Under the pieces are notes generated by a model, which worked only from the letters and a program-made list of their open reading frames with translations, did no database searches and was not told where the DNA came from. Below are positions 14,013 through 45,251 of a DNA stretch of 64,000 nt, in pieces; the first letter of the stretch is position 1, and the number at the start of each line of letters is the position of its first letter. The position numbers were made by a program, and so were the translations under genes. This stretch comes from Candidatus Bathyarchaeota archaeon (GTDB lineage Archaea > Thermoproteota > Bathyarchaeia > Bathyarchaeales > Bathycorpusculaceae), in the NCBI GenBank assembly GCA_963772455.1, contig CAVYXJ010000013.1, forward strand, positions 96,001 through 160,000, in the 5' to 3' direction.

Positions 14013-14034
14013 GGATAATTGAACATTAGGGTTG

Positions 14035-27327: not shown

Positions 27328-27729
27328 ATGGTGGAGCAAATATTAAGTGCTACTCTAATCACTGGTAGAACGATAGATCAAGGCGTAGGAAAAGAGATGG
27401 GGAAAGGCTCCAAAGAATACTTTGATAGTAGTTCAGTTTGCTTCATAGATAAATCTGACATGCTAAAACTTGGTATAAAAAGCGGAACAAATGTTCAAGT
27501 GACCTCTAAGTACGGTTCTGTCATCGTTAAAGCAGTAAAATTTCCAAGCGGAATCACACCTGGAATGGTTTTTATACCATGCGGTTTGTGGGCAAATGCA
27601 ATATGTGGCGACGAAACTTTCGGAATGGGCATGCCTATTTTTAAGGGGTTTCCAGTTGAAGTCAAAGCTGCCCCAAATGAAGCTGTCTTAACCCTTGATG
27701 AGCTTCTAATGAAAGAATATGGACGGTAA
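27328..27729 (+). CDS. fwdD: Formylmethanofuran dehydrogenase subunit D
   Basis: LITGRTIDQG, GMVFIPCGLWAN, GMPIFKG. Confidence 0.9.
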   Translation: MVEQILSATLITGRTIDQGVGKEMGKGSKEYFDSSSVCFIDKSDMLKLGIKSGTNVQVTSKYGSVIVKAVKFPSGITPGMVFIPCGLWANAICGDETFGMGMPIFKGFPVEVKAAPNEAVLTLDELLMKEYGR

Positions 27730-27734
27730 TTATT

Positions 27735-29294
27735 ATGAAAGAAATAAAATCCGTTGTTTGTCCAATATGCGGCTGCTTATGTGATGATTTGGAAGTTACT
27801 GTGGAAAATAACGAAATTGTAAAAATGAAAAATGGCTGTGCTCAATGTGAAGCCAAAATGGTTCACGGGTACAAAAGCGATGAAAGAATTCTAAAACCAA
27901 TGATAAGAAAAGACGGCAAGTTAGTTCCTGTTTCCATGGATGAAGCCGTTCACAAAGCAGCTCAAATTCTCACCGACGCAAAGTATCCACTTCTATTCGG
28001 CTGGAGCAGCTCAACTAGCGAAGCGCAGCGAGTGGGTGTAGAATTAGCTGAAGAATTAGGCTCAGCATTAGATAACTGCTGCAGCGTTTGTCATGGACCA
28101 TCAGTTATGGCTGAACAAGAAATCGGTATCCCTTCATGTACTCTTGGACAAATTAGACACCGTGCAGACCTAGTAATTTACTGGGCATGCGACCCATGGG
28201 CTTCACACCCAAGACACCTTGAAAGATACACCAGTTTTACTGAAGGTCGCTTTGAAGGTAGCCAATGGAAAAATTACATGCAAAAGTTGAAGGGTGAGGC
28301 AAGCATGAAAAAGGTGGACGCTGCTTCAAAACTAATAACGGGCAGCACTATTCCTACTTTTCGTTCAAAGGCATGTGCTATCGATTCTCCCAACGCTCCA
28401 CCTCAAACAATGCAGAAAGATGGACGTAAATTAATTGTTGTTGACGTAAGAAAAACAATAACAGCAGAAGCAGCTGATTATTTCCTTCAGGTAGAACCAA
28501 ACAAAGATTATGAAATACTAGACTCCATGAGATGTTTAATAGCTGACCAAGAACTGGATGTTGACAAGGTTGGTGGTGTTCCAGTTGAATATCTTAAAGA
28601 AGTTACAGACGCAATGGTAAATTGCGATTTTGGCGTCATTTTCTTTGGTCTAGGCTTAACTCAAAGCGCAGGCAGATTCAGAAACATTGAAATAGCAATC
28701 GCAATGACACGTGACCTTAACAGAAAAACCAAGTTCGTTATTTCACCCATGCGTGGACATTTCAACGTGACTGGTGCAAACATAGTTTTCGCTTGGCAAA
28801 CAGGCTATCCATATGCACTTGATTTCTCACAAGGATATCCACAATACAACCCTGGAGAATTCACAGCAATTGATTTACTCAATCGCGGCGACAACGATGC
28901 GACCCTAGTTATTTCCTCAGATCCAGGTGCAAACTTCCCAAAGGGAGCAATGCAAAAAATGATGCAGCACCCGATAATCACAATCAACCCAGACATGAAC
29001 GCAATCTCAAGACTTGGCGATGTAGTGTTTCCAACTCAGTGGTGCGGAATAGAATACGAGGGAACCGCTTACCGCATGGATCTAGTACCAATAATGCTCC
29101 ATAAAGTTGTTGAGCCACCAAAAGGCATTCTAAACGACGAAGAACTATTAAAGAAAATACTAGACGAAGTTCGAGCAATCAAAGCTAAAAATCCAGAAAC
29201 AGAAACTAAAGCCGAACTCAAAGCACGCAACAAACTAGCACCCAGGATCGAAATTAAACAAAGAAAGAAAACAAAAAAAGCAGAGGTTGCTTAA
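27735..29294 (+). CDS. fwdB: Formylmethanofuran dehydrogenase subunit B (Cys-ligand form)
   Basis: CPICGCLCDD, SVCHGPS, TLGQIRHRAD, PMRGHFNVTG, WQTGYP. Confidence 0.93.
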   Translation: MKEIKSVVCPICGCLCDDLEVTVENNEIVKMKNGCAQCEAKMVHGYKSDERILKPMIRKDGKLVPVSMDEAVHKAAQILTDAKYPLLFGWSSSTSEAQRVGVELAEELGSALDNCCSVCHGPSVMAEQEIGIPSCTLGQIRHRADLVIYWACDPWASHPRHLERYTSFTEGRFEGSQWKNYMQKLKGEASMKKVDAASKLITGSTIPTFRSKACAIDSPNAPPQTMQKDGRKLIVVDVRKTITAEAADYFLQVEPNKDYEILDSMRCLIADQELDVDKVGGVPVEYLKEVTDAMVNCDFGVIFFGLGLTQSAGRFRNIEIAIAMTRDLNRKTKFVISPMRGHFNVTGANIVFAWQTGYPYALDFSQGYPQYNPGEFTAIDLLNRGDNDATLVISSDPGANFPKGAMQKMMQHPIITINPDMNAISRLGDVVFPTQWCGIEYEGTAYRMDLVPIMLHKVVEPPKGILNDEELLKKILDEVRAIKAKNPETETKAELKARNKLAPRIEIKQRKKTKKAEVA

Positions 29295-30992
29295 ATGACT
29301 GAACTACTAATAAAAAACGGCTTCGTCTTTGACCCTATTAACAAGATTAACGGGGAAAAAATGGACATAGCCATCAAAGACGGCAAAATCGTCCAAAAAG
29401 TCAAAAGCAAAGCCCAAGTAATTGATGCCTCAGGCTTGACTGTCATGCCGGGCGGCGTTGACATTCATACCCACATTGCAGGTGGGGAAGTTAACACCGG
29501 CAGAATAATTCGCCCAGATGACCATATAAAAGACGTGGAGCGCAAAACAGTCATGACTCGCAGCGGCACAGGCTACTCAATTCCCTCCACTTTTACAACT
29601 GGTTACCGTTATTCTCGTATGGGATATACAACCGTTATGAATCCATCAATGGCTCCACTCCAAGCTAAACATACCCATGAAGAATTAAATGACATACCAT
29701 TGCTAGACAAAGCTACTTACCCGCTTCTTGGCGACTGGTGGTTTGTTTTAGAAAACCTAGCAAAAGGCAAAATTGAAGAATGCGCTAAACATGTCGCTTG
29801 GATGCTAGATATAACCAAAGGGTACGCAATAAAAATAGTTAATCCCGGAGGCTTGGAATCTTGGGGTTTTGGACACAACGTCCACAGCATCGACGATCAA
29901 GTGCCTAACTTCTGCATTACCCCACGCGAAATCATAACAGGCTTAGCCAGAGTTAACGCTATGCTCAACCTGCCTCATTCTATACATCTTCACACCAACA
30001 ACCTTGGATTACCAGGCAACTACACAACTACCCTAGAATCAATGAAGGCACTAGAAAGTGTACCTTACAACGGTAAACCAGTTGGCCATATTACCCACTT
30101 GCAATTCGCTAGTTTTGCTGGCGATGGCTGGGCACACTTCCAATCAGCCTCAGAAGAAATCTCAAGTTACATCAACGCCCACAACCACTTGACTTTTGAC
30201 ATGGGACAAATAATATTCACAGACACAACAACTATGACTGCTGATGGACCCTTCGAATTTTCACTCTACGAGTTAGGCGGCCATAACAAATGGGTTAACA
30301 GCGACATTGAAACCGAAACCAGTGGAGGAATAATACCCTTCACATACAAGAAAAAAAGCCCAGTTAACGCTTTACAATGGTCCATCGGGTTAGAATTAGC
30401 CTTACTCATAAAAGACCCATGGAAAATGTTCATGTCGACCGACCACCCCAACGCTGGACCTTTCTTTGCCTACCCAAGAGTACTCGCTTGGCTCTACAGC
30501 AAGAAAGCACGCGAAATAACTCTGAAACACTGTCACAAGAAAGCTCAGAAAAAGAGTTTGCTTCCATCAATCGATCGTGAAATGTCACTATATGAAATAG
30601 CAATTATGACCCGTGCAGGACAAGCCAAAGCCTTGGGACTCACCAACAAGGGTCAACTCGGCGTAGGTGCAGACGCAGATGTTGCGATCTATAACATTAA
30701 CCCCGAAAAACTCGACATAGCTCAACAGTTCAAGGTTGCACGCAAAGCCTTCAAACACGCAACTTACACAATTAAAGATGGCACAATCGTCGTTAAAGAC
30801 GGCGAAGTAGTAAACAACCAAACGCCGGGTAGAACCATGTGGCTTGATGTGCAAACAAAGGATCCATGTGTGATTGACGATGAAATGAAACGCAAATTCA
30901 AACAATACTGGACAGTTGAATATGACAATTACCCAGTGTTCGAGCATTACCTCCATGTTCCACAGAAACTAACCGTAAAGGCAAGTGTCTAA
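29295..30992 (+). CDS. fwdA: Formylmethanofuran dehydrogenase subunit A
   Basis: DIHTHIAG, KIVNPGG, HLHTNNLG, TMTADGP, STDHPNAGPF. Confidence 0.95.
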   Translation: MTELLIKNGFVFDPINKINGEKMDIAIKDGKIVQKVKSKAQVIDASGLTVMPGGVDIHTHIAGGEVNTGRIIRPDDHIKDVERKTVMTRSGTGYSIPSTFTTGYRYSRMGYTTVMNPSMAPLQAKHTHEELNDIPLLDKATYPLLGDWWFVLENLAKGKIEECAKHVAWMLDITKGYAIKIVNPGGLESWGFGHNVHSIDDQVPNFCITPREIITGLARVNAMLNLPHSIHLHTNNLGLPGNYTTTLESMKALESVPYNGKPVGHITHLQFASFAGDGWAHFQSASEEISSYINAHNHLTFDMGQIIFTDTTTMTADGPFEFSLYELGGHNKWVNSDIETETSGGIIPFTYKKKSPVNALQWSIGLELALLIKDPWKMFMSTDHPNAGPFFAYPRVLAWLYSKKAREITLKHCHKKAQKKSLLPSIDREMSLYEIAIMTRAGQAKALGLTNKGQLGVGADADVAIYNINPEKLDIAQQFKVARKAFKHATYTIKDGTIVVKDGEVVNNQTPGRTMWLDVQTKDPCVIDDEMKRKFKQYWTVEYDNYPVFEHYLHVPQKLTVKASV

Positions 30993-31806
30993 AATGATAA
31001 TTCTAATACCAAAACGAAAATTTGAGGTTCCCGTTCAAGCAGCTTGCATTAGCCCAGATGTATTCAGGGGTAAAGATATTGCTGAAATAGCAAACATGCC
31101 TATAACCGAAGGAAATCGTAACTTAAAACTTGGCGACCTCTTCGAAATCCAAGAAGACAAACTTGAAACACCATTCATCACCATTAATGGCGATGTTAGC
31201 AAAGTCAAACGAATCGGTTCAGCAATGAAAACTGGTGAAATTCTCGTCAACGGTGATGTAGGAATGCATACAGGGGAAAAAATGTCTGGAGGCAAAATCA
31301 TAGTAAACGGTAACATTGGCGGTTGGTCGGGCAATGACATGAAAGGTGGTCTAATCGAAGTGCATGGAGATGCAGGCGACTACTTAGCTTCCCCATACCG
31401 TGGCACTAGTACAGGTATGAAAGGAGGCGTAATAATTGTTGACGGCAAAGTTGGAAGCGACTCAGGATGCTACTTGCACGGTGGCGTTCTCAAAATCAAG
31501 GGTGGAGCAGGTAGGTTCTTGGGTTACCATATGAGTGACGGGGTAATCTTGGTTGATAAGGCAGTTGATATTCGTCCTGGTGCATGTATGACTGGTGGCA
31601 AAATCGTTATCACAGGCACAGTTGACGAAGTAATGCCAACTTTCACGATCGACAGCGTTAAACCTAAAGTCAAAATTGACGATACAACATCAGCGGCGGG
31701 ACCATTCTATGTGTTCCTAGGTGACTTAGCTGAACATGGCACAGGCAAAATATTCGTTTCAAAAGCCAACAATCCACAAATGAAATTCTACGAAAAATAC
31801 CTTTGA
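30985..31806 (+). CDS. fwdC: Formylmethanofuran dehydrogenase subunit C
   Basis: GxxMxGGxIxVxG beta-helix repeats; FLGDLAE. Confidence 0.93.
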   Translation: MSKMIILIPKRKFEVPVQAACISPDVFRGKDIAEIANMPITEGNRNLKLGDLFEIQEDKLETPFITINGDVSKVKRIGSAMKTGEILVNGDVGMHTGEKMSGGKIIVNGNIGGWSGNDMKGGLIEVHGDAGDYLASPYRGTSTGMKGGVIIVDGKVGSDSGCYLHGGVLKIKGGAGRFLGYHMSDGVILVDKAVDIRPGACMTGGKIVITGTVDEVMPTFTIDSVKPKVKIDDTTSAAGPFYVFLGDLAEHGTGKIFVSKANNPQMKFYEKYL

Positions 31807-31945: not shown

Positions 31946-32740
31946 GTGAATGTTATGCGCCAAGTTGACATGACTAGGCTTGACTTATCCACGGGAAAAG
32001 CAGAAAAAACAACTGATTACGTGGCTGAAGAGGTTCCCCTACAAATCACCATAAACTCAGCCTATGCTTTTGTCATTTGGTGTTCTCCCTCACAATTCAA
32101 AGAACTCGCAGTCGGCTACTTGCTATCTGAGGATATTCTTAGTTCTGTTGATGAAATCCAAGAGTTAATCTCTAACGAAGCAAAGAATAGTTGCCAAATT
32201 ACGATAAAGGCATGTGTGGATTTGGATGAACGAATGAAAAATATGCGGCAAAGTACACGCATAATTCCCCTTATAAAAGCAAGCACATCACCCTATCAAC
32301 ATGACCAGAAAATTCCCACGGTAAAATCCAAACTCACAATTAAAGCACAAACCATACTTGACGCAATCGACCAAATCAACAACTTAGCAAAGGGATTCAA
32401 AGAAACAGGTGGACTACACGACTCAGCCATCTTCCAAGCAGACGGCAAAATGGTGGCTTTCTCAGAAGATGTCGGCAGACATAACACTGTTGACAAAGTC
32501 ATAGGTGCGGCTTCGCTATCAAAAGCTGATTTTAACCAAAGCTTCATGATAATCACAGGGCGAGTACCGGGCGATATGATTTATAAAGCTGCAAAAGTTG
32601 GTTTACCCATAGTTGCTTCAGTAGCAGCGGTTCTCAACTCAGGAATTTCTTCGGCCAAAAAAGCCAATATCACTTTGATTGGATTTGTACGTGGAAAACG
32701 AATGAATATTTACACTTGCGCAGAAAGGATTACTTGGTAG
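31946..32740 (+). CDS. fdhD: FdhD sulfurtransferase (Mo/W-bis-PGD sulfuration)
   Basis: FKETGGLH, EDVGRHNTVDKVIG, GFVRGKRMNIY. Confidence 0.9.
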   Translation: MNVMRQVDMTRLDLSTGKAEKTTDYVAEEVPLQITINSAYAFVIWCSPSQFKELAVGYLLSEDILSSVDEIQELISNEAKNSCQITIKACVDLDERMKNMRQSTRIIPLIKASTSPYQHDQKIPTVKSKLTIKAQTILDAIDQINNLAKGFKETGGLHDSAIFQADGKMVAFSEDVGRHNTVDKVIGAASLSKADFNQSFMIITGRVPGDMIYKAAKVGLPIVASVAAVLNSGISSAKKANITLIGFVRGKRMNIYTCAERITW

Positions 32741-34018
32741 GTGCCTGCAGTGAATAGACCTGACATTAAAAGATTGCCAAAACGCTCAAACCCAATGGAT
32801 GCACAAAAGCAACTTCTTGACGCCGTCCACTCAAACTTAAATCCGAGCGAAATGGTGCAGTTGCAGAAAGCTTTAGGCAGAGTTTTAGCTCAAGATGCTA
32901 TTTCAACTGTTAACATTCCTAACTACGACAAAACTTTCATTGACGGCTACGCAATCAACTCGCAAGATACTAAGGCAGCCTCAACTACAAAACCTGCAGC
33001 CTTCAAAGTTGTCGGAAAATTATTTCCAGCAGATTACCCAACCGCATTTGAAGCTGCTCATGGTGAAGCAGTTTATGTTGCATGTGGAGCTCCAATACCC
33101 AAAGGTGCGGATTCAACAGTAAAAGTTGAGGAAACAAGGTTAAACGGCGACAAAATCGAAGTTATTCGCGAAATCACTTCAGGCGAAGGCATAATACCGC
33201 TTGGAGACGACATGAAAAAAGGCGATTTAATTCTCAAGAAGGGGCAGGTCCTAAGACCGCAGGATATTGGGGTATTAGCTTCACTGGGGATGATCATTGC
33301 TGAAGTTGCTAAAAAGCCAAAAATCGCCATTATTTCGGGCGGAGACGAACTGATCAAGCAAGCCAGCAAAGACCCAGCCAAAATCGCCAATAATTATGCC
33401 CTTGTTGTTGCTGGTTTGGCTTCCGAATTAGGGGCTGAAGCGGAAATGGTTGGGATAATGGCCGATGATTTTGAAAAAGTTACTGCAAAAATCGCTGAAG
33501 AGATTGCGGATTCAGATATCGTGGTTACAATAGGCGGGACATCAGTTGGGGTGAAAGATTTTGTTCCTGATGCTGTCAATGCGCTTGGCGATCCTGGAGT
33601 GGTTGTTCAAGGTGTTTCGTTAAGGCCAGGTGCAGTTTCAGGCTTCGGAATAGTCTGTGGCAAGCCGGTGATTATGTTGCCCGGGCATATTGGTTCTTGT
33701 ATAGCTGGGTTCTACCTTTTTGTCGCGCCCTTAATTAGCCACTACCTCGGGGATAACGGCGATGGTGTGCTTCCAAAACTGAGCGCTGAGTTAGCTGAAG
33801 ATCTGGAGACTGGTCCACAATTTCGATTCCAACTCACCCACCTAAAACAGTTTGAGGGCAAACTGTTAGCTGAACAAGTTGAAGGCGGATCAAGCGCATT
33901 AACAACTATCGTCAAATCAAACGGTTATACTATAGTGCCGCCGCATACGAGACTCGCGAAAGGGAGTCGCGTAGAAGTTTACTTATTTGGCAAACTGGAA
34001 CTTACTCAAATCATTTAA
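32741..34018 (+). CDS. moeA: Molybdopterin molybdotransferase MoeA
   Basis: GRVLAQD, DGYA, SGGDEL, GGTSVGVKD, LPG. Confidence 0.9.
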   Translation: MPAVNRPDIKRLPKRSNPMDAQKQLLDAVHSNLNPSEMVQLQKALGRVLAQDAISTVNIPNYDKTFIDGYAINSQDTKAASTTKPAAFKVVGKLFPADYPTAFEAAHGEAVYVACGAPIPKGADSTVKVEETRLNGDKIEVIREITSGEGIIPLGDDMKKGDLILKKGQVLRPQDIGVLASLGMIIAEVAKKPKIAIISGGDELIKQASKDPAKIANNYALVVAGLASELGAEAEMVGIMADDFEKVTAKIAEEIADSDIVVTIGGTSVGVKDFVPDAVNALGDPGVVVQGVSLRPGAVSGFGIVCGKPVIMLPGHIGSCIAGFYLFVAPLISHYLGDNGDGVLPKLSAELAEDLETGPQFRFQLTHLKQFEGKLLAEQVEGGSSALTTIVKSNGYTIVPPHTRLAKGSRVEVYLFGKLELTQII

Positions 34019-35107
34019 GAAACCTTGGGTGGATACCTGTGAACGTGACCGTCTTTTCCCATAACCCACGATTCACACCATGCCTTATCAGCGAATGCAC
34101 GTTCAGCCAGAAGCAGACAACGGTTGCTTTCGAAAATTTTTGACTCGACACGGTAGTTATTTGCAGCTCGTAGATAAGCTTCTTTTCCTGCAAAATCTAA
34201 CGTCGCAGCCAGTTCCGATTCCGTTTGTTTTTGTGATAGAGTAAACAAAGCTTCTCCTTGGTTTTCTTCAGCTACCCCGCTCCAAAAAAACGAATCACAA
34301 GCTTCCAAGTCGCTGGCACATTTAGCAAAGGTTTTTTGCGCTTCCAAAAGGTTGTTTTCTTGGAGCAATTTGGCTCCTTTTCTGAGAAGCTGCAAATCAG
34401 AAACCGAAAATACGCCCATGTTTAGGTGTACATTTTCTTTTACTGGTCCATATGAACGGCGGGTTTGCAGACGAGTTAGGTCTTCTTTTGAGTTTATGTT
34501 AATGAAGCTCTTTAGTTCCGGGTCGAGTGCTTTTATTTCGTTTACTGGAGAAATCAGCAAGGTTTTGCTGGCTCCTCGTGGAATATCATCTGAGCGAGGC
34601 CGTTTCAGTTGGCATAGTGTATCCGTGATTTCTAAACTACTTTGGCGTTCCAAGAACCATTATAAGGGTTTCAAGTCTGCCGTTAGGCCACATTGGAACA
34701 ACCACATCAGACTCTTCCGCTTCATTAAACATATATTCAGCAACTTTGGGCTGCAAAAAAGGCATATCGCAAGGCAAAGTTAAGCAATAATCCGCTTGAA
34801 CAGCTCTTAAACCTGACATGATTGCCACGTTTGGGCCACTTATGTGGCTAATTTTTTCGTCAATAACAATCCTGACGTTTTTAATGGCATATTGTTCTAA
34901 AGTTTTAGTATATTTCGCTTTTCGTTCCTCATCGTTTACACACACAACGATTTCATCGACAATGTCCTTGACGTTTTCCATAGCGTGGATTAAAAGAGGT
35001 TTACCGTTGAGTTCAGCTAGGGCTTTATCTCGCCAGATTGCATCTATTGTTTGGAATCTGCGAGCTTTTCCCCCTGCCAAAATGAGTGCAGCCCGTTTAG
35101 CCATCAC
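34015..35107 (-). CDS. mobA: Molybdenum cofactor guanylyltransferase MobA with C-terminal helical extension (apparent +1 frameshift near 34652)
   Basis: ILAGGKARRF, DKAL, PCDMPFL in the 5' ORF; SFININSKEDL in the 3' ORF; joined by removing one base. Confidence 0.85.
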
Positions 35108-35113
35108 GTTTCC

Positions 35114-35773
35114 TCAGTTAACGGTTTTTGTGCTTGCTTTACCTAATTGTTCTTTTATAAGCGTGATTAGTTTTTGGCCCTCTTCAGGAATCTTGATTAT
35201 CGGTATATTTCCATAAGATGTATTGGTTGCGTTTGTGGCTGCAATACCTGTAATCGCAATGATTGGCTCAACTGTTCCCTGCAACGTTTCTTCGAGTCCT
35301 TCTCTGTTTTTCGCTGTAATAATTTTGGGCACATCAACTCTTTTAGCTATTAAGCTGTGGAAGCCTTCAATGAATACGATATCGAGTTTCTCTTGTTCCA
35401 AAAGAGCGATTATTTGGTTTAAATCGTTGAGTGCCATCTCGGTTTTTTTGATGATGTCTATTTCTTCAGGTGAAATGGCAACAATGACTTTGGAGCCTGC
35501 CTTTGCATAACGCCAAGTGTTGGTTCCTTCTTTATCCATCGTGAAGCCTTTGTGGTGGACATGCTTTATTGAGCCGATTTGGTAGCCTTCAGCTGACAGA
35601 TGAGAAATAAGGTACTCTAAAGTAACTGTTTTTCCTGAACCGCTAACGCCAACAGCGGCTATAACTAAAACCGTAAAGTCGCACACTCCGCATGGAATCA
35701 AGTTGCTTGGCTTTTTATAAATAATGCTCAAGCTGTTTGCTTTCTGCGGTAGTTTTCTTAAAGATAGCGCCAA
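35114..35773 (-). CDS. mobB: Molybdopterin-guanine dinucleotide biosynthesis protein MobB (true start probably near 35680)
   Basis: GVSGSGKT, IKHVHH, DIVFIEGF. Confidence 0.88.
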   Translation of the reverse strand: MALSLRKLPQKANSLSIIYKKPSNLIPCGVCDFTVLVIAAVGVSGSGKTVTLEYLISHLSAEGYQIGSIKHVHHKGFTMDKEGTNTWRYAKAGSKVIVAISPEEIDIIKKTEMALNDLNQIIALLEQEKLDIVFIEGFHSLIAKRVDVPKIITAKNREGLEETLQGTVEPIIAITGIAATNATNTSYGNIPIIKIPEEGQKLITLIKEQLGKASTKTVN

Positions 35774-35835: not shown

Positions 35836-36346
35836 GTGCCAAAGCTTGTAGCGGTTGTCGGTGGGAAGCATTCTGGAAAAACCACTGTGATTGAGCATTT
35901 GATAGTTGAGCTCAAGCGTCGTGGGTACCGAGTGGGAGCTGTTAAGGAGATGGTTCGGATTCCAACGTTGGATACGCCAGCAACCGAAACCGACAGGTAC
36001 AGCATTGCAGGAGCAGAAACGATAGTTGCCGTTCCAAGAGACGAAACTGTGGTTTTCATCAAAAGAAGATTGAACATAGAAGAAATCGTGCCTTTCCTAG
36101 AAGGGTTAGATTATGTTGTTTTAGAAGGCTTTGAGTCAGAAAAAATGCTTCCTAAAATAATCGCAGCAAAAACCGCTGATGAAGCAAAAAGCTATTATGA
36201 TCCTCTCTACCATCGCCGTTTCAGGAATAATAACTGAATCAGACATCGAAACCAAAAAAGCGGCTGCCATAAAAGTTCCAATATTCAATTTGACTGAAAC
36301 TGAAGCCTTGACTGATTTGATTGAGAAAAAAGCTATTGAAATGTAG
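35836..36346 (+). CDS. mobB: Second MobB-like protein (apparent +1 frameshift near 36208)
   Basis: GGKHSGKTT, RGYRVGAVK, DYVVLEGF; corrected frame continues IAVSGII...KKAIEM*. Confidence 0.78.
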
Positions 36347-36347: not shown

Positions 36348-36852
36348 TTAACGGACTTCGATTGCTACTACGCCTCTGACCCATCTTTGTGCAAATTGAT
36401 CGCTGCCTATTATGAGTCGCAGTGGTCCTTCACCATCATCTTTTAGCGCTGTCAAGGGTGAGCCGTTTCTTTGGTAGGCTATGATAGTGTTTTGGTTCAT
36501 TGCATCTTGGATACTTATGGTCGTTCCGTAGCCGTCTGAAGCTTGAATGTATACGGAGGTGGCACTTGTCAAGGATGATGGCTTGGGCAAGTAATTCTGG
36601 AAGTTGAACGCCGGTGTAATTGTAAACACCGTTGTCTGATGGTCTGCTGCTAGACGACAATGTAACTTGTACAGTTGTTGATGGTTGTGTTTTGAGTTGG
36701 CTAAGTGTCAGTGTTGTTGGGTTGTTTACTTTTCCCTTAATCTGTAAGACATCAGTTTGCGTTGTTTCTGGACGCGTATAATAATATAGCGGCACTGCTG
36801 CGATAATCAAAAAAATAAAGAAGACAAAAACAATTTTTGAGGCTTTCTTCAA
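36348..36852 (-). CDS. Membrane-anchored SUOX/Oxidored_molyb-fold protein lacking the Mo-ligand Cys (apparent +1 frameshift near 36566)
   Basis: N-terminal TM; LQIKGKV, YTGVQL, ASDGY, GPLRLII, WVRGV. Confidence 0.75.
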
Positions 36853-36863
36853 GCAAAAACGCC

Positions 36864-37790
36864 TTAGGTTACTGTAACTCCTGAAACCCACCTAACCCAA
36901 TATTGACCCCACTTAAAATCTTCCGTTGGAACAACAAGGCGGTAAGGTTGACCGTTAACAGGTGTTAGGTAAGCGCCGTTTTCTTGGTATCCAATCAAGA
37001 TACCAAGGTCTTTGGCTTGCTGGATCGTGTATTCTCGGCTGTAACCGTCAATTGCTAACACAGTGACTTTGCTGGCGCCTTCTGAGACACCGCTGGCTTG
37101 CAGAATACTCCAAAGACTCACACCAGTCCACTCAGAAGTTCTTTGGGGTTCTCCACCTGGAGCAAGCGCTGCCTGCACAGTTATGGGTTCATAATTTGCT
37201 AAGTTGTTGCCTGTTAATACAAGTGGGTTAGAGACTGCCCCTGTAAAGTTGATTGTCCACGGTTGCAAACGGATTTCACTTACGCTTTTAACATTAAAGT
37301 TTGATGCTAACCCTGGAGTTATTAGTTTTAGTGGTCCTTCAGAAATATCAGTTATCCAGTTTCCATTCTTGGCAAACGCCAAAATTATTTCTTCACCTGA
37401 ATACTGTGTGCTGTTGTAGGCTTGATAGGTGTTTATTGTTTTGTTGAAGCCATCAGATGCAATTACGTTGATAAAGCCTGCATCCCATGAGGCACCGATG
37501 TGGTTGAGAAGCTGGAGCATTGTTACTCCGATGTAATTGGCTGTTTCGCCTTTAATTGTGCTTGTTACGTTTGTCAAGGGCATCTGGGTAAGGTCATCTA
37601 TAGTCACGGTTTTTTCTGATGCAATGTCACCTGTGATTTTGAGTTGAACCTGCGGTGGATTACCACTAGGTAAACCTAAATTGCTTTTTTGAGCTGGACC
37701 GCCTGTTAAATAATAAATGGATGCTGTTAATGCAATAATAACTACAGCTAATGTTGAAACCGCTAAAACGATTTTTCTGGTTTTATTCAA
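36864..37790 (-). CDS. Membrane-anchored tandem SUOX/Oxidored_molyb-fold protein with no Cys
   Basis: N-terminal TM; two repeats of G-V / A-x-DG(F/Y) / P(L/Y)(K/R)L / V(K/R)xV motifs. Confidence 0.78.
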   Translation of the reverse strand: MNKTRKIVLAVSTLAVVIIALTASIYYLTGGPAQKSNLGLPSGNPPQVQLKITGDIASEKTVTIDDLTQMPLTNVTSTIKGETANYIGVTMLQLLNHIGASWDAGFINVIASDGFNKTINTYQAYNSTQYSGEEIILAFAKNGNWITDISEGPLKLITPGLASNFNVKSVSEIRLQPWTINFTGAVSNPLVLTGNNLANYEPITVQAALAPGGEPQRTSEWTGVSLWSILQASGVSEGASKVTVLAIDGYSREYTIQQAKDLGILIGYQENGAYLTPVNGQPYRLVVPTEDFKWGQYWVRWVSGVTVT

Positions 37791-38358
37791 TTTTTTTTCC
37801 TCCGAAACCGATTTTTCCTACTCTAAATAGAAGCATGTTAGCGATGAATCCTCCAATGCAACCGCTTATTGCTGCAACAACACTCAAAAATGAGAGCACC
37901 CCCAAAGGCAAAAACAGAACTAATGCTCCCACTGAAATGGTTCCGACAACATTAGCTATTGCTGCGGCACCGATGCAACAGGCTGAACAGCAGGCTTTAT
38001 GCTTTGAAATCAAAAAGAAAGCGTCGATTGCTAAGCCAGGGGCAAGATAGATGACAAATGAGAGGAGACCGAAGTTGCCGAATGGAAGCAGCAGACTAAT
38101 GAAGGCTTGTGTTAAGGAGACCATTGAGGCAGCCCCGATTTTACGTACAAGACCAAACGCCATTACTGGCCACATCATGTATAATCCTCCGGCTACAGCA
38201 CCAGTTGGGACGTACAGTGGTCCTGTTATAGCGGCGACGAGTGGGTGGATAACATTTTTTGTTGCTAAGCCAAGGCTTGCGAAGAGTGCCATTAGGACTA
38301 AGTCTGTGGTAGCGATTTTTAGGGTGCCTTTTGCCAAGTTTTGGTGTGGTTGATTCAT
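37783..38358 (-). CDS. ECF transporter substrate-specific (S) component
   Basis: About 190 aa with 6 TM helices; TTDLVLMALFA start, LVRKIGAA, PGLAID; ATG 38358. Confidence 0.72.
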   Translation of the reverse strand: MNQPHQNLAKGTLKIATTDLVLMALFASLGLATKNVIHPLVAAITGPLYVPTGAVAGGLYMMWPVMAFGLVRKIGAASMVSLTQAFISLLLPFGNFGLLSFVIYLAPGLAIDAFFLISKHKACCSACCIGAAAIANVVGTISVGALVLFLPLGVLSFLSVVAAISGCIGGFIANMLLFRVGKIGFGGKKIE

Positions 38359-38367
38359 GCAAAACTC

Positions 38368-38391
38368 CGATGTTATCACTTTGTAACATCG
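38368..38391. promoter_or_regulatory. Perfect palindrome CGATGTTA-N8-TAACATCG, candidate operator
   Basis: 8-bp inverted repeat between a TATA-like TTTATTTT (minus strand) and the S-component ATG. Confidence 0.55.
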
Positions 38392-38432
38392 ATAAAATAA
38401 ACCTATCGTTAAAAAAAACAAACAAAACCAAA

Positions 38433-38762
38433 TTATGAAAGTTCCATTACAACGCCATCAAGTTTTAACTGAGCGTTCCGGTATCTTTTCACCAAATCTT
38501 TGCCAAAATCCGTAACCTCCGAAGAACCACCACCCTTTGCCCCACCGCGAACCCGAGTAACCAAAGACTCACCTAACCTCTCCTCAGCCAAAGTTAGTCT
38601 ATGCAAAGCATACCGATAAGACATCTTCAACTCATTAGCAGCCTCTAAAACAGAATGCCGTTTATCAATTTCTTCGAGCAATTCAGCTAAACCATTTCCA
38701 AAAACTGCTTCGCCTTTATCGTTAACCATCCAAAGCTTAATCGCAAAACCTAAAGCGCACAA
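38433..38762 (-). CDS. ModE N-terminal-type winged-HTH regulator (no TOBE domain)
   Basis: FGNGLAELLEEI...SVLEAANELKMSYR...RGGAKGGGSEVT. Confidence 0.85.
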   Translation of the reverse strand: MCALGFAIKLWMVNDKGEAVFGNGLAELLEEIDKRHSVLEAANELKMSYRYALHRLTLAEERLGESLVTRVRGGAKGGGSSEVTDFGKDLVKRYRNAQLKLDGVVMELS

Positions 38763-42522: not shown

Positions 42523-43542
42523 TTATACCTCGATAACCTTCGCGTTACTAAGCACGTTAACGTTACCATTGCCCTTTGTGATGTAGCCAACTTCGAAATG
42601 CCTGACTTTCCGCTTGTCCAATTCGCTCAATAAATCATCGGCGTCCTCTTTGGCTATGGCTATTAGCATTCCACCTGCCGTTTCCTTAGCTTCACCTTGC
42701 AACAAGGGGTAACCAAAAATTTCAGTTAAAACGGGCGTGCCACGAATTACCGCCAACTGGTCAATAACGACGTCCACTTTCCCAAGTCCTGCCATATTGG
42801 CAGCGTGCCCTTTCAACCCAAAACCAGTCACGTCTGTCGCGGCGTGAACGGGAACTTTCTGCATAGCTTCAGCGACCGGTTTGTTTGAGGTAATCATTAC
42901 TTCAATAGCTTCAGCGACAGCCTCTTCAATTAACACTTCAGAAACTTCTTTTAGTACTTCTCTGCCCTCTTCTTCCTTACGCAAACGATAAGCAGCCATC
43001 GCAGGCGCAATCCCAAGAGGTTTAGTCAAAAACAAACGGTCACCAACCTGAGCCCCTTTTGTATAGACAATTTTCTCAATTTCGCTAACAGCAGTTGCCG
43101 CCCCTCCAATAATAGGCCAGGGATTCCTGATTGTATGTCCACCAACAACAGGTGCACCCATTTCGCGGCAGAAATCTCCAAACCCCTTTAGCATTCCTAC
43201 TGCCAATTCGTCTGGCATGTTTTCGGGAAACGCCATAATAGACAGAACACTGACAATGTTTGTGACTGCCAAAGCGTAGATGTCACTTGTCACGTTGCTA
43301 CCTGCGATTCTACCTTGGATTTCAGGTTCGTCAACCATGGGCGTGAAAAAATCAAGCGTATTTAGTACGGCAAGGTTGTCTGTGATTTTAACGACGCTGG
43401 AGTTTTCCCATGGACCAGCCAATACATCTGAATTAAAACTCTCTGTTAAACCTGCGTTATCGAGCAATCCGCCGAGTTGATACTGTGGAAGTTTGCAACT
43501 GCAACCGTGAACTGGAACAACTTTTGTTAATCTGTAAGTCAA
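42523..43542 (-). CDS. selD: Selenide, water dikinase (selenophosphate synthetase), Cys form
   Basis: GCSCK, TLDFFTPMVD, SDIYA, GGHT, LTKPLG, ATDVTGFGLKGH, ETAGGMLI. Confidence 0.92.
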   Translation of the reverse strand: MTYRLTKVVPVHGCSCKLPQYQLGGLLDNAGLTESFNSDVLAGPWENSSVVKITDNLAVLNTLDFFTPMVDEPEIQGRIAGSNVTSDIYALAVTNIVSVLSIMAFPENMPDELAVGMLKGFGDFCREMGAPVVGGHTIRNPWPIIGGAATAVSEIEKIVYTKGAQVGDRLFLTKPLGIAPAMAAYRLRKEEEGREVLKEVSEVLIEEAVAEAIEVMITSNKPVAEAMQKVPVHAATDVTGFGLKGHAANMAGLGKVDVVIDQLAVIRGTPVLTEIFGYPLLQGEAKETAGGMLIAIAKEDADDLLSELDKRKVRHFEVGYITKGNGNVNVLSNAKVIEV

Positions 43543-43641
43543 ATTTCATTTGCTCCAATTGTCGATATTATTCCAAATAGCACAGGGATTTATAGGTATA
43601 AAAATATTCAAACCAAAAAAAATGGAAAAGAAGAGTTTTGG

Positions 43642-44932
43642 TTACTTTCTTTTTTCTTGGATTATTTCAAGGAATGCTTCAATTCTGGTTTTTATCTGCT
43701 CGGAATCACCCATTGCATAGTCAGTTTCAATCTTTAGCATCGGCAAACTTATCGCCTTTAATGCACGGTCTACTTTGACGCCTTCAACGTTGTAGTCGTG
43801 GCAGTTCTGCAACGTGTAATAGATTACGCCTTCTGCTTTGAATTGCTTAGCCAGCTCTATTACACTTTTTATGCGTGCATCGTTGGGTGTGAAGCATGCA
43901 CAGGGTATCTGGCTGTATTTTTCAACCATAGCCCAGAGCAAATCGTTTAAGCTGTCACCTTTCGGTTCAACCAAGTTAGTAAAGTAACGTGTGCCTACGC
44001 AACTCTCCTCAACAATCACTGAAGCACCAGCCGCTTGAGCGATGCTGTGGACTTTCCAATTGGGAATCGCCATAGGGCAGCCAGAAATCATAACTCTTGG
44101 CGCATCTTTCGCTGTGACACCTATGCCTTTGTGTACCCGTTCGTCAAGTTCGTCGCAGAGTTCGTTGACTTTTGTGGTGAAGCGTTTTACGTCGTCGTTG
44201 AAGCTGATTTGGAAAATCAGTAACGCATCTAATCCGCTGATGGGCGATGGGTTGTTGGCGCGCAAGTCGGATAAACGTTTGAGGGCTTTTCGTTTGTTGT
44301 TGATTAATTCGATGGATTCTTTTAGTTTTTCGGCGGTTATTTTGTTGCCTGTAACTTCTTCAAGTTTGGTTTTGAATGCTTCAAGTTCTTTGTACCAGAA
44401 TTCTTTGCCTTGTCGTGTATCTGGTTTATGAGGAACCTCTAAAACATAGGTTGGAATAAGTTCGTTTAGTAGTTCGTAAACTTTCTTTTTGCCATCGCAG
44501 GTTGTTTCTCCAACCACAAGGTCGCTTGACTGAAAGTAGGGGCAAGTTTTGTTTAGTCTAAAGCCGTAGAACGATTTTATCAAGGGGCAGAGGTTTCTTG
44601 GCAAAATTGCTTCTGCGTCTGGAACTGAGAAGTCTGCTCCACCGCACAACCCAACCATGGTTGCGTCTGCCGCGTAAGCTAGTCTCTTCTGGCGCGTAAA
44701 TGCAGAATGCACCAATGACTTTTTTGCCTTTTGCTCTGAGGTCGTTGAGTTCTTTGATTCGTAACCCGTGGATTTCTGAGACGACAAAGTCGAAGTAACC
44801 CATTCCTTTAGGTCGGTTCTTCTGTGTTAGGTATAAGGCTCCGTAGTATTGTCCTAAGATGCCAAGGAGTTGGTTATGTTTTTCAATATCCATTCCGAGA
44901 GATTTCCACATTTCTACATATTTTTCTGCCAT
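43642..44932 (-). CDS. Double-cubane-cluster reductase / 2-hydroxyacyl-CoA dehydratase D family (apparent +1 frameshift near 44683)
   Basis: YFDFVVSEIHGLRIKEL, GAFCIYAPEE, GLCGG, NLCPLIKS, CPYF, ETTCDGKKK, GCP, EESC, PCAC, IETDY, TRIEAFLE. Confidence 0.85.
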
Positions 44933-44958
44933 AGCAATCACATGCCAATGATGAGCGT

Positions 44959-45011
44959 ATTGAAAATTCTAATTATTAAAATTATTGATAAATATTATTA
45001 GAAATATTGAT
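44959..45011. promoter_or_regulatory. Three 15-bp ATT-N9-(A/G)AT boxes, candidate LysR sites
   Basis: ATTGAAAATTCTAAT, ATTAAAATTATTGAT, ATTAGAAATATTGAT, each containing T-N11-A. Confidence 0.4.
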
Positions 45012-45016
45012 TGAGG

Positions 45017-45251
45017 CTAGCGTTTTTTAACTAAAACCTTAAACTCAGCGGCAGACTTCGAATGCTTCAACCACTTCATGACCATTATTCTTAACCCAAC
45101 GCTGAATGTTATCAAACTCCAACTCACCCTCACCAACAACCTCCAACAACTGTCCAGCAACCATCGTCTCAAGCTTACGCTTCGTAAACACCACTGGCAT
45201 GGGACACATTTTGCCCTTAACATCCAACTTTTCAATTTCCAAAAACGTCAC
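45017..45251 (-). CDS. tusA: TusA/SirA sulfur (selenium) carrier protein (apparent +1 frameshift near 45062)
   Basis: LDVKGKMCPMPVV motif; C-terminus FKVLVKKR* in the shifted frame. Confidence 0.85.

Follow-up and report, generated by a model that had tools for sequence, protein, structure and literature searches.

PruR of Agrobacterium and other Proteobacteria (PDB 7kou, 7kos, 7rkb, 7kp2, and 7kom) is a periplasmic pterin-binding protein with a SUOX fold. Its description names Asn102, Tyr104, and Trp160 as pterin contacts and also a Pro-Trp motif, the ligands are pterins other than the molybdenum cofactor (Moco), and the authors consider the cleft, with its short hairpin, too small for full Moco (PMC11194511). 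The SUOX fold binds Moco in the sulfite oxidase family (SorA, SoxC, sulfite oxidase, and YedY/MsrP), where the hairpin holds the Mo-ligand Cys. Among transporters, YkoE-type ECF vitamin importers have six-helix S-components (PF09819), a dedicated or shared EcfA-A′-T, and, at some loci, a cofactor riboswitch. ECF importers are not known to need a binding protein. ModABC, TupABC, and WtpABC are binding-protein-dependent ABC importers of oxyanions. EetB and FmnA of Listeria export FAD for extracytosolic flavinylation (PMC9973259). Caenorhabditis elegans takes up dietary Moco, that is, ready-made cofactor from other organisms, as the system proposed below would. This uptake takes place in an animal, and PMC9793310 nowhere uses the word "transporter"; our literature search found no prokaryotic Moco transporter.

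Here we describe a gene cluster in a 64,000-nt stretch of DNA (the window) from a Candidatus Bathyarchaeota archaeon, whose S-component and SUOX-fold genes are called the module below. The cluster and its neighbors are as follows.

38433..38762, minus strand: ModE N-domain-like HTH regulator of 109 aa (TIGR00637, HTH_1), first gene of the cluster
37783..38358 (open frame up to 38421), minus strand: ECF S-component of a YkoE-family (PF09819) subfamily, 50.2 bits
36864..37790, minus strand: SUOX2, anchored 308-aa protein with two SUOX-fold domains (PF00174, 112.6 bits, two stretches)
36348..36891, minus strand: SUOX1, anchored single-domain SUOX-fold protein (PF00174 matched by both frame pieces)
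35836..36343 (called ORF 35836-36237), plus strand: MobB-family P-loop protein (PF03205, 73.4 bits)
35114..35773, minus strand: second MobB paralogue (PF03205, 97.9 bits)
34015..35107 (Pfam-matched ORF 34637-35107), minus strand: MobA-like guanylyltransferase (PF12804, 112 bits) with a C-terminal domain of unknown family
32741..34018, plus strand: MoeA, for metal insertion into molybdopterin (MoeA_N, MoCF_biosynth, and MoeA_C matches)
31946..32740, plus strand: FdhD-type sulfurtransferase/chaperone (PF02634, 224 bits)
27328..31806, plus strand: formylmethanofuran dehydrogenase-like genes (Pfam matches)
30985-31806, plus strand: FwdC-like GXGXG protein (Pfam)
29295-30992, plus strand: FwdA-like amidohydrolase (Pfam)
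27328-27729, plus strand: Molydop_binding subunit (Pfam)

A preliminary description of this locus had named a ModE-like HTH, an ECF S-component, and two anchored proteins with three SUOX domains on one strand, all of which were found on the minus strand. It also placed mobA, mobB, moeA, fdhD, and fwd genes beside them; Pfam matches bore this out, with mobB in two copies. The second MobB paralogue is kept beside the module in relatives. The subunit names of the fwd-like genes are our reading of their domains, and a 519-aa ORF among them had no Pfam match; these genes likely encode a user of the W/Mo cofactor.

The membrane protein encoded at 37783-38421 matched PF09819 (ABC_cobalt) with 50.2 bits (cut-off 25.2). 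The length of its relatives (187–204 aa, with 73–95% identity) makes the Met at 38358 the probable start. An AF2 model contained seven helical segments (pLDDT 74, pTM 0.70), and its best Foldseek match was the ECF S-component 5edl (E 2.6e-4, TM 0.70, 23% identity in the structural alignment), which we take to be YkoE; the top 11 matches also held RibU, PanT, ThiT, and BioY, ranked after 5edl. The modeled fold is that of six-helix ECF S-components. Searched with the sequence, PDB gave no match even at E 10. The subfamily is small (419 library representatives at E ≤ 1e-3), and homologues are named "thiamin/hydroxymethylpyrimidine transport permease" in the source records. We found no thiamine context (a TPP riboswitch, or thi or ykoCDF neighbors) for them, as no TPP riboswitch occurs in the 41 loci scanned and the neighbors are SUOX-fold, MobB, MobA, and MoeA genes. 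A known other specificity of the S-component had been named as evidence against the preliminary description; the protein belongs to the YkoE family by Pfam, yet forms a separate small subfamily within it, in a Moco and not a thiamine context. The CCSACC segment reported earlier lies within an H-K-x-C-C-x-x-C-C motif that opens the fifth predicted helix at its predicted cytoplasmic end; none of the 35 aligned relatives deviates at the four Cys residues or at the His before them. This motif is absent in 12 of 40 loci outside Bathyarchaeia, including three of the five riboswitch-bearing loci described below. In all, the module shares the fold, PF09819, EcfA-A′-T, and riboswitch features of YkoE-type importers but differs from them in its Moco context, its dedicated extracytoplasmic binding-type proteins (sometimes fused), its CCxxC(C) motif, and its linkage to MobB.

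SUOX2, predicted to lie outside the cell on an N-terminal anchor, has no Cys and five N-x-S/T sequons, which agrees with the preliminary account of Cys-less SUOX domains with sequons. Structure comparison with PruR and MsrP, proposed at that stage, gave matches to both: in the AF2 model of SUOX2 (pLDDT 88.1), residues 175–308 matched PruR 7kos with Z 17.8 (129 of 146 residues aligned), and the model matched YedY with Z 14.8 and SorA with Z 19.7 (rmsd 1.6, 133 residues aligned). The SUOX1 family profile scored PruR and the sulfite dehydrogenase SorA equally well, and the hairpin of the family is as long as that of PruR: 7kos was matched with E 9.7e-8 and an ungapped hairpin, while SorA needed insertions of 12 and 3 residues. 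SorA Mo-ligand Cys104 aligned with Ser, and in bacterial orthologues the residue here is Ser, Ala, or Thr. The pterin-stacking Tyr104 of PruR aligned with the invariant Tyr of a D-G-Y motif and Asn102 with an invariant Asp, and the P-W motif is replaced by a Ser-rich sequence. Trp160 lies beyond the aligned stretch, and the SUOX1 family has a nearly invariant Trp near its C-terminus. The domains of SUOX1 and SUOX2 share with PruR a Cys-free, compact SUOX fold of ca. 130–150 residues, a predicted extracytoplasmic location, the stacking Tyr, and the short hairpin. They differ from it in lacking the P-W motif, in having Asp for Asn102, an N-terminal helix anchor, and tandem arrays of one to several domains, and in their partners, which are the ECF S-component, EcfA-A′-T, and MobB; a DcpA-type GGDEF-EAL partner was absent from the window and from all loci examined by Pfam scans of their ORFs. 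The PF00174 match and the Moco-binding fold (Z 14.8–19.7) are shared with the sulfite oxidase family, but the Mo-ligand Cys, the dimerization/heme domain, and the Tat motif are missing and the size is about half that of the catalytic domain. An assignment of these proteins as sulfite oxidase-family enzymes was therefore rejected.

In the window, SUOX1 is broken into two ORFs that overlap (36436-36891 and 36348-36629) and each match PF00174, a split that the preliminary description does not mention. In relatives, this third SUOX domain is encoded by one intact gene (167–188 aa), and the extra base at 36566/36568 was absent in all three covering runs of close relatives' contigs. Similarly, an extra base near 34653, absent in three of three covering runs, splits mobA, whose counterpart in another locus (L027) is a single ORF of 361 aa; one near 36202 (36201-36204), absent in four of four runs, cuts the C-terminus off the 133-aa mobB, and this C-terminus resumes in the next frame. 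Since three one-base insertions fall within ca. 2 kb, assembly indels are the simplest account, and the SUOX1 split is probably an assembly error.

The synteny, whose loss was to count against the preliminary description, proved to be conserved: of 79 related loci, which come from Bathyarchaeia, Clostridia, and Thermoleophilia, 77 have a SUOX-like gene next to the S-component or fused to it (within 3 kb or fused in 38/39 Bathyarchaeia-like loci and 39/40 others), and the order S-component followed by SUOX genes was kept in 7/7 close loci from three GTDB families. This arrangement is not due to chance. The uptake system postulated earlier would not be exclusively archaeal, as many anaerobic bacteria carry the cluster too. 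Of the 40 loci outside Bathyarchaeia, 35 contain EcfA and 31 contain EcfT, and in bacterial loci EcfA/A′/T are usually encoded in the same operon as the S-component. In L031 and L032, both from Bathyarchaeia, the SUOX genes are immediately followed by EcfA-A′-T. A search for EcfA/T in the present genome, suggested earlier, located one stand-alone EcfA-A′-T (contig C10, 290286-292740) with no S-component beside it. MobB is present in 31/39 Bathyarchaeia-like and 14/40 other loci; in bacteria its gene often directly follows that of EcfT, with XdhC and MobA-like genes nearby.

Several parts of the module occur fused within single proteins. Of the 80 S-component ORFs, five (L078, L083, L085, L089, and L099) join the S-component to a transmembrane segment and a SUOX1-type domain; the same fusion is found in P0362, P0367, P0370, and P0388 among the 17 long library matches checked. 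Fusions of the S-component to a type I phosphodiesterase (nucleotide pyrophosphatase) occur in L080, L103, P0366, P0373, and P0379, and many bacterial versions of the module include this enzyme, either as a separate gene of the operon or as a fusion with the S-component. One MobA-like–S-component–SUOX fusion (P0500) is a single protein on one 2.6-kb contig. Bacterial SUOX1 orthologues adjoin EcfA; SUOX1 is the core partner of the S-component. Operons of the Clostridium ultunense type also hold an FMN_bind–SUOX protein and a NapH/NosR-like Fer4_5–FMN_bind protein.

ModE proper consists of an N-terminal HTH and two Mop (molbindin) domains. The HTH protein of the cluster resembles the ModE N-domain only, with scores below the cut-offs (TIGR00637 ModE_repress, 55.1 bits against 98.5; HTH_1, 25.3 bits against 26.6); it has no Mop domain, for which 109 aa leaves no room. 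Homologues lie within 1.5 kb of the S-component gene in 29/39 Bathyarchaeia-like loci and 1/40 other loci. An Rfam scan covering 41 non-close, mostly bacterial loci revealed a Moco/Tuco riboswitch (RF01055, 54.5–78.6 bits) on the same strand just upstream of the first gene in five loci (L087, L082, L100, L117, and L115). The 41 loci yielded neither a TPP nor a THF riboswitch; only Moco riboswitches precede the module. Four of the five lack stem P3, a form linked to the tungsten cofactor by Regulski et al., whose paper also describes control of molybdate transporters (mod/tup genes) in other organisms by the Moco riboswitch (PMC2408646). Because of this latter role, the riboswitch does not separate the cofactor from the metal.

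We compared the presence of the module with that of pterin biosynthesis. MoaC was detected in 26 of the 36 genomes that carry the module. Among the 10 without it, which include Ca. Bathyarchaeum tardum (record titled complete) and the assembly of an Anaerosalibacter isolate, the MoaA C-domain was found in none, MoaE in one, and MoeA in three. PF00384 enzymes are encoded in seven of these genomes, xanthine dehydrogenase-type enzymes in five, and AOR in four, so that nine encode Mo/W enzymes and one has none of the three types. In two Bathyarchaeia genera, MoaC is missing in 5 of the 6–7 module-bearing genomes and in none of the 10 module-less genomes; kin are not independent, and this contrast corresponds to about two events. 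Specifically, MoaC and MoaA are both missing in 3 of 11 genomes of genus g1 (G151, G157, and G193), which are three of its four module carriers, and all seven module-less genomes have MoaC. In genus g20, both are missing in 2 of 5 genomes (G090 and G098), exactly the two module carriers, and the three module-less genomes have both. All g1 and g20 genomes in this contrast encode AOR. Across 201 Bathyarchaeia, 40 lack MoaC, of which 28 have AOR, and 5 of these 28 have the module. Three AOR-bearing genomes without MoaA and MoaC (G072, G118, and G046) gave no S-component match; the module is not the sole route for MoaC-less AOR carriers. The absence of MoeA in 7 of the 10 apparent auxotrophs implies that they would need the metal-loaded, labile cofactor.

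The present genome does not follow the auxotrophic pattern: a check for de novo moaA and moaC, proposed with the preliminary description, found both, together with a TupABC-like tungstate transporter. The system here would therefore supplement synthesis rather than replace it. Since most module genomes make MoaC and this one also has TupABC, the module is not essential here.

We propose, with a probability of roughly 0.68, that the module serves as an ECF importer for the salvage of a molybdopterin-type cofactor caught by PruR-like surface domains. The folds, gene order, fusions, riboswitches, and association of the module with MoaA/MoaC loss are documented above; from this comparative evidence we infer the ligand, the direction of transport, how the cofactor is handed over, and what the Cys motif and MobB do. 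The core of the preliminary description, in which Cys-less SUOX proteins feed an ECF importer of such a cofactor, is favored by every comparative test applied, namely by the synteny, the association with EcfA/A′/T, the fusions, the riboswitches, the Mo/W enzymes of genomes lacking MoaA and MoaC, and the PruR match; nothing points to its other suggested cargo, methanopterin precursors. The cargo could be Mo- or W-molybdopterin or metal-free molybdopterin; given the small cleft that its authors describe for PruR, the ligand might instead be a smaller pterin. Sec-exported, anchored SUOX1 and SUOX2 would hold the pterin in the cleft that carries Moco in sulfite oxidase-family enzymes and pass it to the YkoE-family S-component, which would dock on EcfA-A′-T, stand-alone on contig C10 here and dedicated in the operon elsewhere. 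Cytoplasmic MobB, MobA, MoeA, and FdhD would then complete the cofactor for enzymes such as Fwd and AOR. Where present, the extracellular nucleotide pyrophosphatase may trim MGD or MCD to the plain molybdopterin form bound by the SUOX fold. Control is probably exerted by the ModE-N-like HTH in Bathyarchaeia and by the Moco/Tuco riboswitch in some Clostridia.

A reverse direction, in which the ECF system carries Moco outward to load Sec-exported SUOX-fold proteins, the Cys-free domains act as carriers or chaperones, and MobB acts as the donor, appears very unlikely. It has a precedent in EetB/FmnA, with which the module shares ECF cofactor traffic for extracellular proteins and, in Firmicutes, FMN_bind/NapH-like genes; EetB belongs to another family, PF07456 and not PF09819 (PMC9973259), and the association of the module with biosynthesis loss points to import. 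The FMN_bind–SUOX and Fer4_5–FMN_bind proteins of the C. ultunense-type operons are typical extracytosolic redox parts, and several SUOX-fold paralogues of the present genome, anchored or secreted, have retained the Cys (C-V-E-G-W-S type) and show no visible twin-arginine motif. However, TatC is encoded in this genome, so export of folded Moco-proteins is still available to it, and the SUOX domains encoded in the operon itself have no Mo-ligand Cys. Moreover, the 10 of 36 module genomes without MoaA and MoaC, 9 of which also lack MoaE, would have nothing to export, and the module tracks loss of synthesis within the two genera.

Uptake of the metal itself is also highly improbable. The S-component would then import molybdate, tungstate, or their thio-forms, with the four Cys as thiophilic ligands and the SUOX-like domains as anion receptors. 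The CCxxCC motif is invariant in Bathyarchaeia, sulfidic habitats favor thiomolybdate, and the module shares with ModABC, TupABC, and WtpABC a Mo/W context, ModE-type regulation, and control by the Moco riboswitch, which elsewhere regulates mod/tup genes as noted above. In contrast to these importers, the module occurs in genomes unable to build the pterin, which, lacking MoaA, MoaC, MoaE, and mostly MoeA, could not use the metal, and the present genome already has its TupABC-like system. The SUOX/PruR fold is known for binding pterins and not oxyanions (PMC11194511). The nucleotide pyrophosphatase would have no role in metal uptake, and the Cys motif is dispensed with at the loci mentioned above, riboswitch-bearing ones included.

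Uptake or sensing of another compound, such as a neopterin- or monapterin-like pterin, a methanopterin or folate precursor, or thiamine/HMP, has only a slim chance of being correct. The thiamin/hydroxymethylpyrimidine permease names and 5edl as the best structural match favor it, and the fwd genes imply methanopterin use. Furthermore, SUOX1 matches PruR, a binder of non-Moco pterins (PMC11194511). On the other hand, the relationship to 5edl is distant in sequence, the module is preceded by Moco riboswitches and not by TPP or THF riboswitches in the loci scanned, a DcpA-like partner is lacking, and the P-W motif of PruR is replaced. The linkage to MobB, MobA, MoeA, and XdhC and to the loss of MoaA/MoaC is specific to Moco.

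Finally, that these genes are mere neighbors without a joint function, or a cluster decaying in this genome, is extremely unlikely: SUOX1, mobA, and mobB are interrupted within 2 kb, but by single extra bases absent from relatives' contigs, the pattern expected of assembly errors, in otherwise highly conserved proteins, and loci from two domains of life preserve the gene order, with parts fused in several lineages.

If cofactor import is correct, extracytoplasmic receptors would here serve an ECF importer, and uptake of Moco/Tuco from the surroundings would be a route not yet described for microbes. There is an even chance that it represents a cross-domain salvage pathway, in which the surface pyrophosphatase trims cofactor that other cells have released from its dinucleotide form, SUOX receptors capture it, the ECF system imports it, and MobB/MobA receive it, making the cofactor a shared "vitamin" of anoxic communities. 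Organisms without MoaA, MoaC, MoaE, and even MoeA would thereby keep AOR, formate dehydrogenase, and xanthine dehydrogenase-type hydroxylases.

The genome carrying the window (G000) comprises 2.45 Mb in 24 contigs, with an estimated completeness of 92% and an estimated contamination of 3.4%, and close protein relatives carry the source labels Bathyarchaeia or Bathyarchaeota. The following genes are central here.

Genes of the S-component locus in the window
38433–38762, minus strand: HTH protein of 109 aa; NCBIfam ModE N-domain, 55.1 bits, below the cut-off of 98.5
37783–38421 (probable start 38358), minus strand: membrane protein (S-component); Pfam PF09819, 50.2 bits
36864–37790, minus strand: SUOX2, anchored, two-domain, 308 aa; PF00174, 112.6 bits, in two stretches
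36348–36891, minus strand: SUOX1, anchored, single-domain, seen as two overlapping ORFs; PF00174 in both pieces

SUOX2 is free of Cys and contains five N-x-S/T sequons. Pfam searches identified two MobB genes, MobA, MoeA, FdhD, and Fwd-like genes as neighbours. The ORFs and the Pfam and NCBIfam matches thus bear out the preliminary description of an HTH protein, an ECF S-component, and Cys-less SUOX proteins among Moco genes. Hereafter, "module" denotes the YkoE-family (PF09819) S-component with the Cys-free SUOX1 and SUOX2, with or without EcfA-A'-T. MobA (34015–35107, minus strand) and its counterpart in a relative, locus L027 (14224–15309), have a fused C-terminal domain of ca. 200 aa without a Pfam family, and the genus g20 homologue (L030, 10775–11551; L031, 5240–6016) of the MobB adjoining the module is 258 aa long with an extra Cys-rich C-terminal part. 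At 42523–45676 (minus strand), a SelD-like AIR-synthase-family protein adjoins 2-hydroxyglutaryl-CoA-dehydratase-type and DsrE-like proteins, together with a small ORF that we read as TusA-like; in L027, the SelD-like gene immediately adjoins the ModE-N-like gene. A 519-aa ORF (27735–29294, plus strand) between a Molydop_binding subunit and a FwdA-like gene had no Pfam match at 1e-5 and, judged by its position, could be a divergent FwdB.

SUOX1 is a single intact gene of 167–188 aa in relatives. For the frameshift check, contigs of four public runs with relatives of this stretch were used. One base was absent at 36566–36568 (SUOX1) and at 34653–34655 (inside mobA) in three of the three runs covering each site, and at 36201–36204, the 3' end of the 133-aa mobB (35836–36343, plus strand), in all four runs. 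In translation, the MobB C-terminus runs on in the next frame past ca. 36202, and MobA, one 361-aa ORF in L027, is interrupted here where an additional base lies near 34653. Since three single extra bases occur within ca. 2 kb, each missing from the relatives' contigs, the three interruptions would be better explained by assembly indels than by decay or recoding, and a programmed frameshift or pseudogene was set aside for SUOX1; a real mutation is a possible cause of its split. A cytoplasmic-type SUOX-family gene with the Cys motif on another contig of G000 (C9, 118898–119486) is also split into two ORFs, which again suggests an indel error in this assembly.

The AlphaFold2 model of SUOX2 (pLDDT 88.1, pTM 0.81) shows an N-terminal helix, a linker of low confidence, and two domains rich in beta structure. 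In the structural ranking (Foldseek, VIA-align 2), SorA (Z 19.7), SoxC (19.5), and plant sulfite oxidase (18.0) were followed by PruR (7kos; Z 17.8, 129 residues aligned, model residues 175–308) and YedY (14.8). A SUOX1 profile built from 47 sequences matched SorA at E 5.7e-8 and PruR (7kos) at E 9.7e-8. The SorA hairpin bearing the Mo-ligand Cys104 needs insertions of 12 and 3 residues to fit this profile, and Cys104 aligns with Ser, whereas the PruR hairpin aligns without a gap. Tyr104 of PruR corresponds to the invariant Tyr of the SUOX1 D-G-Y motif, and Asn102 to an invariant Asp. According to the available portion of the PruR paper, the pterin ring is stacked between Tyr104 and Trp160 and bonded to Asn102, and the authors consider the cleft, with its short hairpin, too small for full Moco (PMC11194511). 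By analogy, the shallowness of the PruR cleft would argue for a cargo smaller than full Moco. The S-component model (pLDDT 74, pTM 0.70) matched ECF S-components, best of all 5edl (E 2.6e-4, TM 0.70, 23% identity), followed by RibU, PanT, ThiT, and BioY; these relatives were found by fold search only, and phmmer against PDB sequences gave no match at E ≤ 10. G000 has 13 PF00174 matches, and its SUOX paralogues on this basis include C15:11999–12664, C5:43025–43690, C2:1739–2710, C12:202262–203269, C11:64367–65179, and C21:29512–30339. Several PF00174 proteins are membrane-anchored or have a signal peptide and keep Cys at the Mo-ligand position; no twin-arginine motif was seen in the Cys-bearing exported paralogues.

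The S-component was found in 15 of 201 sampled Bathyarchaeia genomes, eight of them (G000, G151, G157, G187, G193, G090, G098, and G007) with 59–100% and seven with 23–29% identity. SUOX genes lie directly downstream in all seven close loci outside G000, with MobB nearby where the contig allows. The distant S-components, from family f18, were excluded from module counts: no SUOX neighbour was present in the three of the seven loci examined (L033–L035), and the Cys motif described below was absent in the two read in detail (L034 and L035). Two f18 S-components (L033, 7147–7533; L034, 6874–7455) adjoin xanthine-dehydrogenase-type Mo-hydroxylase genes. A wider scan with the S-component alignment as query and one genome per species kept 79 loci, 39 of them Bathyarchaeia-like and 40 others with 37–47% identity, mostly from Clostridia and also from Thermoleophilia. 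Clostridia with the module belong to Anaerovoracaceae, Peptococcaceae, Eubacteriaceae, Oscillospiraceae, Clostridium ultunense, Zhenpiania, Anaerosalibacter, and Desulfosporosinus.

Neighbours of the S-component in the 79 loci (ORFs searched with HMMs from our own alignments; Bathyarchaeia-like loci, then other loci)
SUOX-like ORF within 3 kb, or fused: 38/39; 39/40
EcfA: 8/39; 35/40
EcfT: 2/39; 31/40
MobB: 31/39; 14/40
ModE-N-like gene within 1.5 kb: 29/39; 1/40

The synteny of S-component and SUOX genes, noticed at first in the window only, is therefore conserved, and EcfA and EcfT could be located. The single EcfT of G000 lies within a stand-alone EcfA-A'-T set on contig C10; in L031 and L032, which represent two further GTDB families, the operon continues after the SUOX genes with EcfA, EcfA', and EcfT, and most bacterial loci likewise have them in the operon. 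The small bacterial SUOX protein encoded just upstream of EcfA aligns over its full length with SUOX1, and its residue in place of the Cys is Ser, Ala, or Thr. Pfam analysis of three bacterial loci added a type I phosphodiesterase/nucleotide pyrophosphatase gene between those of the S-component and SUOX1, SLH or fn3 surface proteins, an FMN_bind and SUOX protein, a Fer4_5 and FMN_bind membrane protein, and genes of the DUF364/DUF4213, XdhC, and MobA-like types. Of the 40 other loci, 16 encode the phosphodiesterase, among them every one of the five that have a riboswitch, and a calcineurin-like phosphoesterase of L027 (Pfam) has a homologue in four Bathyarchaeia-like loci. In Zhenpiania hominis (L092), the module EcfT is fused to a purple-acid-phosphatase N-domain (13257–14564), and large fn3 surface proteins are encoded inside the operon (8212–11952). 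The DUF364/DUF4213 protein (Pfam "putative heavy-metal chelation") is beside the module in L081, L086, L092, L093, L097, L112, and L116 and could substitute in metal handling where MoeA is missing.

A profile search covering 1.84 billion representatives showed that the S-component family is small, with 419 proteins at E ≤ 1e-3 and 78 at E ≤ 1e-30. The 17 long library matches checked included four fusions of S-component and SUOX, three of S-component and phosphodiesterase, and one triple fusion. In L078, L083, L085, L089, and L099, the S-component ORF is extended by a basic linker, a seventh hydrophobic helix, and then a domain of the SUOX1 type, while in L080 and L103 it is fused to the phosphodiesterase. 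The library protein P0500 combines a MobA-like domain, the S-component, and a SUOX domain in a continuous 545-aa sequence; we give it little weight because it is a singleton from one 2.6-kb contig. Since both termini of S-components are expected to be cytoplasmic, the fusion architectures would place MobA inside the cell, and the extra helix would bring the SUOX and phosphodiesterase domains outside. From these gene fusions, docking of SUOX1 on the S-component may be proposed.

All 35 aligned relatives of the S-component share an invariant H-K-x-C-C-x-x-C-C motif, which 37 of the 39 Bathyarchaeia-like loci have; the two without it are L072, where the ORF is split, and L076, where the match is truncated. 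In the remaining 40 loci, CCxxCC was found in 14, at least CCxxC in 28, and neither in 12, which include the C. ultunense group and three riboswitch loci. From the positive-inside rule and the model helices, the motif is predicted to lie just past the cytoplasmic loop preceding the fifth helix, where it may hold a metal or dithiolene at the release step.

Rfam was used to scan 41 loci (L076 and L078–L118 except L109). The Moco RNA motif RF01055 (gathering score 36) was found on the module strand in five of them (L087, L082, L100, L117, and L115; 54.5–78.6 bits), and it ends 41–62 bases before the first SUOX-like ORF in L087, L082, and L100. Stem P3 is missing in four of the five. In the available part of Regulski et al. 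(PMC2408646), the P3-less motif is linked to genes for the tungsten cofactor, and the moaA element of E. coli is shown to respond to Moco synthesis by repression. In none of the 41 loci was the module preceded by a TPP or THF riboswitch. FMN riboswitches ca. 2 kb downstream of it in three related Clostridia loci (L085, 11646–11774; L089, 11678–11805; L099, 11643–11771) probably belong to the next operon.

MoaC and the MoaA C-domain are present in G000, and scavenging forced by missing biosynthesis was therefore rejected there. Of 36 module-bearing genomes reached through loci, 26 have MoaC and 10 lack both MoaA and MoaC. G000 also has a TupABC-like tungstate transporter, in two nearly identical sets (C12:163553–166463 and C23:115–2559) that may reflect duplication or strain mixing.

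Genes in the ten module-bearing genomes without MoaC (completeness not given; one titled complete genome, one isolate assembly, three with contigs of 1.7–1.9 Mb)
MoaA: 0/10
MoaE: 1/10
MoeA: 3/10
PF00384 enzymes: 7/10, two of them containing an in-frame TGA of the kind seen in selenocysteine formate dehydrogenases
Xanthine-dehydrogenase-type enzymes: 5/10
AOR: 4/10

Only G205 lacks all three enzyme families; nine genomes, including the complete genome of a cultivated Bathyarchaeon and a Clostridia isolate, have Mo/W enzymes without MoaA and MoaC. In the isolate, Anaerosalibacter, the searches found no MoaE or MoeA either. Because most of these apparent auxotrophs also lack MoaE and MoeA, the pattern would argue for a metal-loaded cofactor as cargo.

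Of the 201 sampled genomes, 161 have MoaC and 186 have AOR. Among the 11 genomes of genus g1 besides G000, MoaC and MoaA are both absent in G151, G157, and G193 (90–99% complete), three of the four with the module, and MoaC is present in all seven without it. In genus g20 (five genomes), G090 and G098 (97% and 95% complete) have the module and lack MoaC and MoaA, whereas both genes are present in G148, G160, and G199, which have no module. Counting G000, MoaC is thus absent in 5/7 genomes with the module versus 0/10 without it, a contrast that, because the genomes are kin, represents about two independent events, drawn from two families. G000, G187, and G007 have the module together with MoaA, and their MoaC match is clear in the first two and weak in G007. 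AOR is present in 28 of the 40 genomes that lack MoaC, and the module accompanies it in only five; G072, G118, and G046 have AOR without MoaA, MoaC, or an S-component match, and G106 and G196 lack MoaC and have MoaA.

Judging from sequence, we put at about two in three the probability that the module is an ECF importer salvaging a molybdopterin-type cofactor caught by PruR-like surface domains. Such salvage would make sense of a SUOX fold lacking the catalytic Cys, of its extracellular position, and of the ECF parts, the gene fusions, and the pyrophosphatase; it would likewise account for the link to MobB and MobA, the riboswitch, and the lost biosynthesis. Export of Moco to surface enzymes would fit the Cys-bearing, Sec-type SUOX paralogues of G000 and has an ECF precedent in the EetB/FmnA FAD exporter, as described in the available part of PMC9973259; however, it cannot explain module-bearing genomes that make no Moco and is improbable. 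The argument that another Moco export route is needed for lack of a Tat system was rejected because G000 has TatC. Uptake of molybdate or tungstate instead of a pterin is just as improbable, since it fails both on the genomes making no Moco and on the pyrophosphatase. Thiamine or another pterin as cargo fails on the genomic context and is likewise hard to credit.

To our knowledge, Moco is treated as self-made by every Mo/W-using microbe, and the job of MobB has long been unclear. Our literature search, which covered main texts, found neither a Moco transporter of prokaryotes nor any ECF system linked to molybdopterin; for uptake of ready-made Moco, only nematode dietary uptake came up. No word starting with "molybd" occurs in the main text of a flavinylation survey (PMC8238504), and the available portion of a riboswitch regulon paper (PMC3766115) has no Moco uptake category. 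The Bathyarchaeum tardum paper (PMC10477458), as far as its text was available, has no word beginning "molybd" or "tungst" and reports that the organism is deficient in several cofactors and grows only alongside a methanogenic partner. What would be new for an ECF importer, as far as the genes suggest, is the cargo class, the surface receptor domains, and the cytoplasmic link to MobB/MobA.

The candidate genes are small and present in cultured Clostridia, and salvage import is directly testable. If true, a prokaryotic importer of Moco or its W counterpart would explain Mo/W-enzyme genomes without MoaA, MoaC, and MoaE, and MobB would gain a concrete job. Among ECF importers it would also be the first to have dedicated receptor domains at the surface, and it would extend Cys-free SUOX (PruR-type) domains from signalling to nutrition. 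The finding would bear on Moco supply to engineered hosts, on the cross-feeding of cofactors among members of gut and sediment communities, and on the cultivation of Bathyarchaeia, which, according to the available part of PMC10477458, have so far been grown only with partners.
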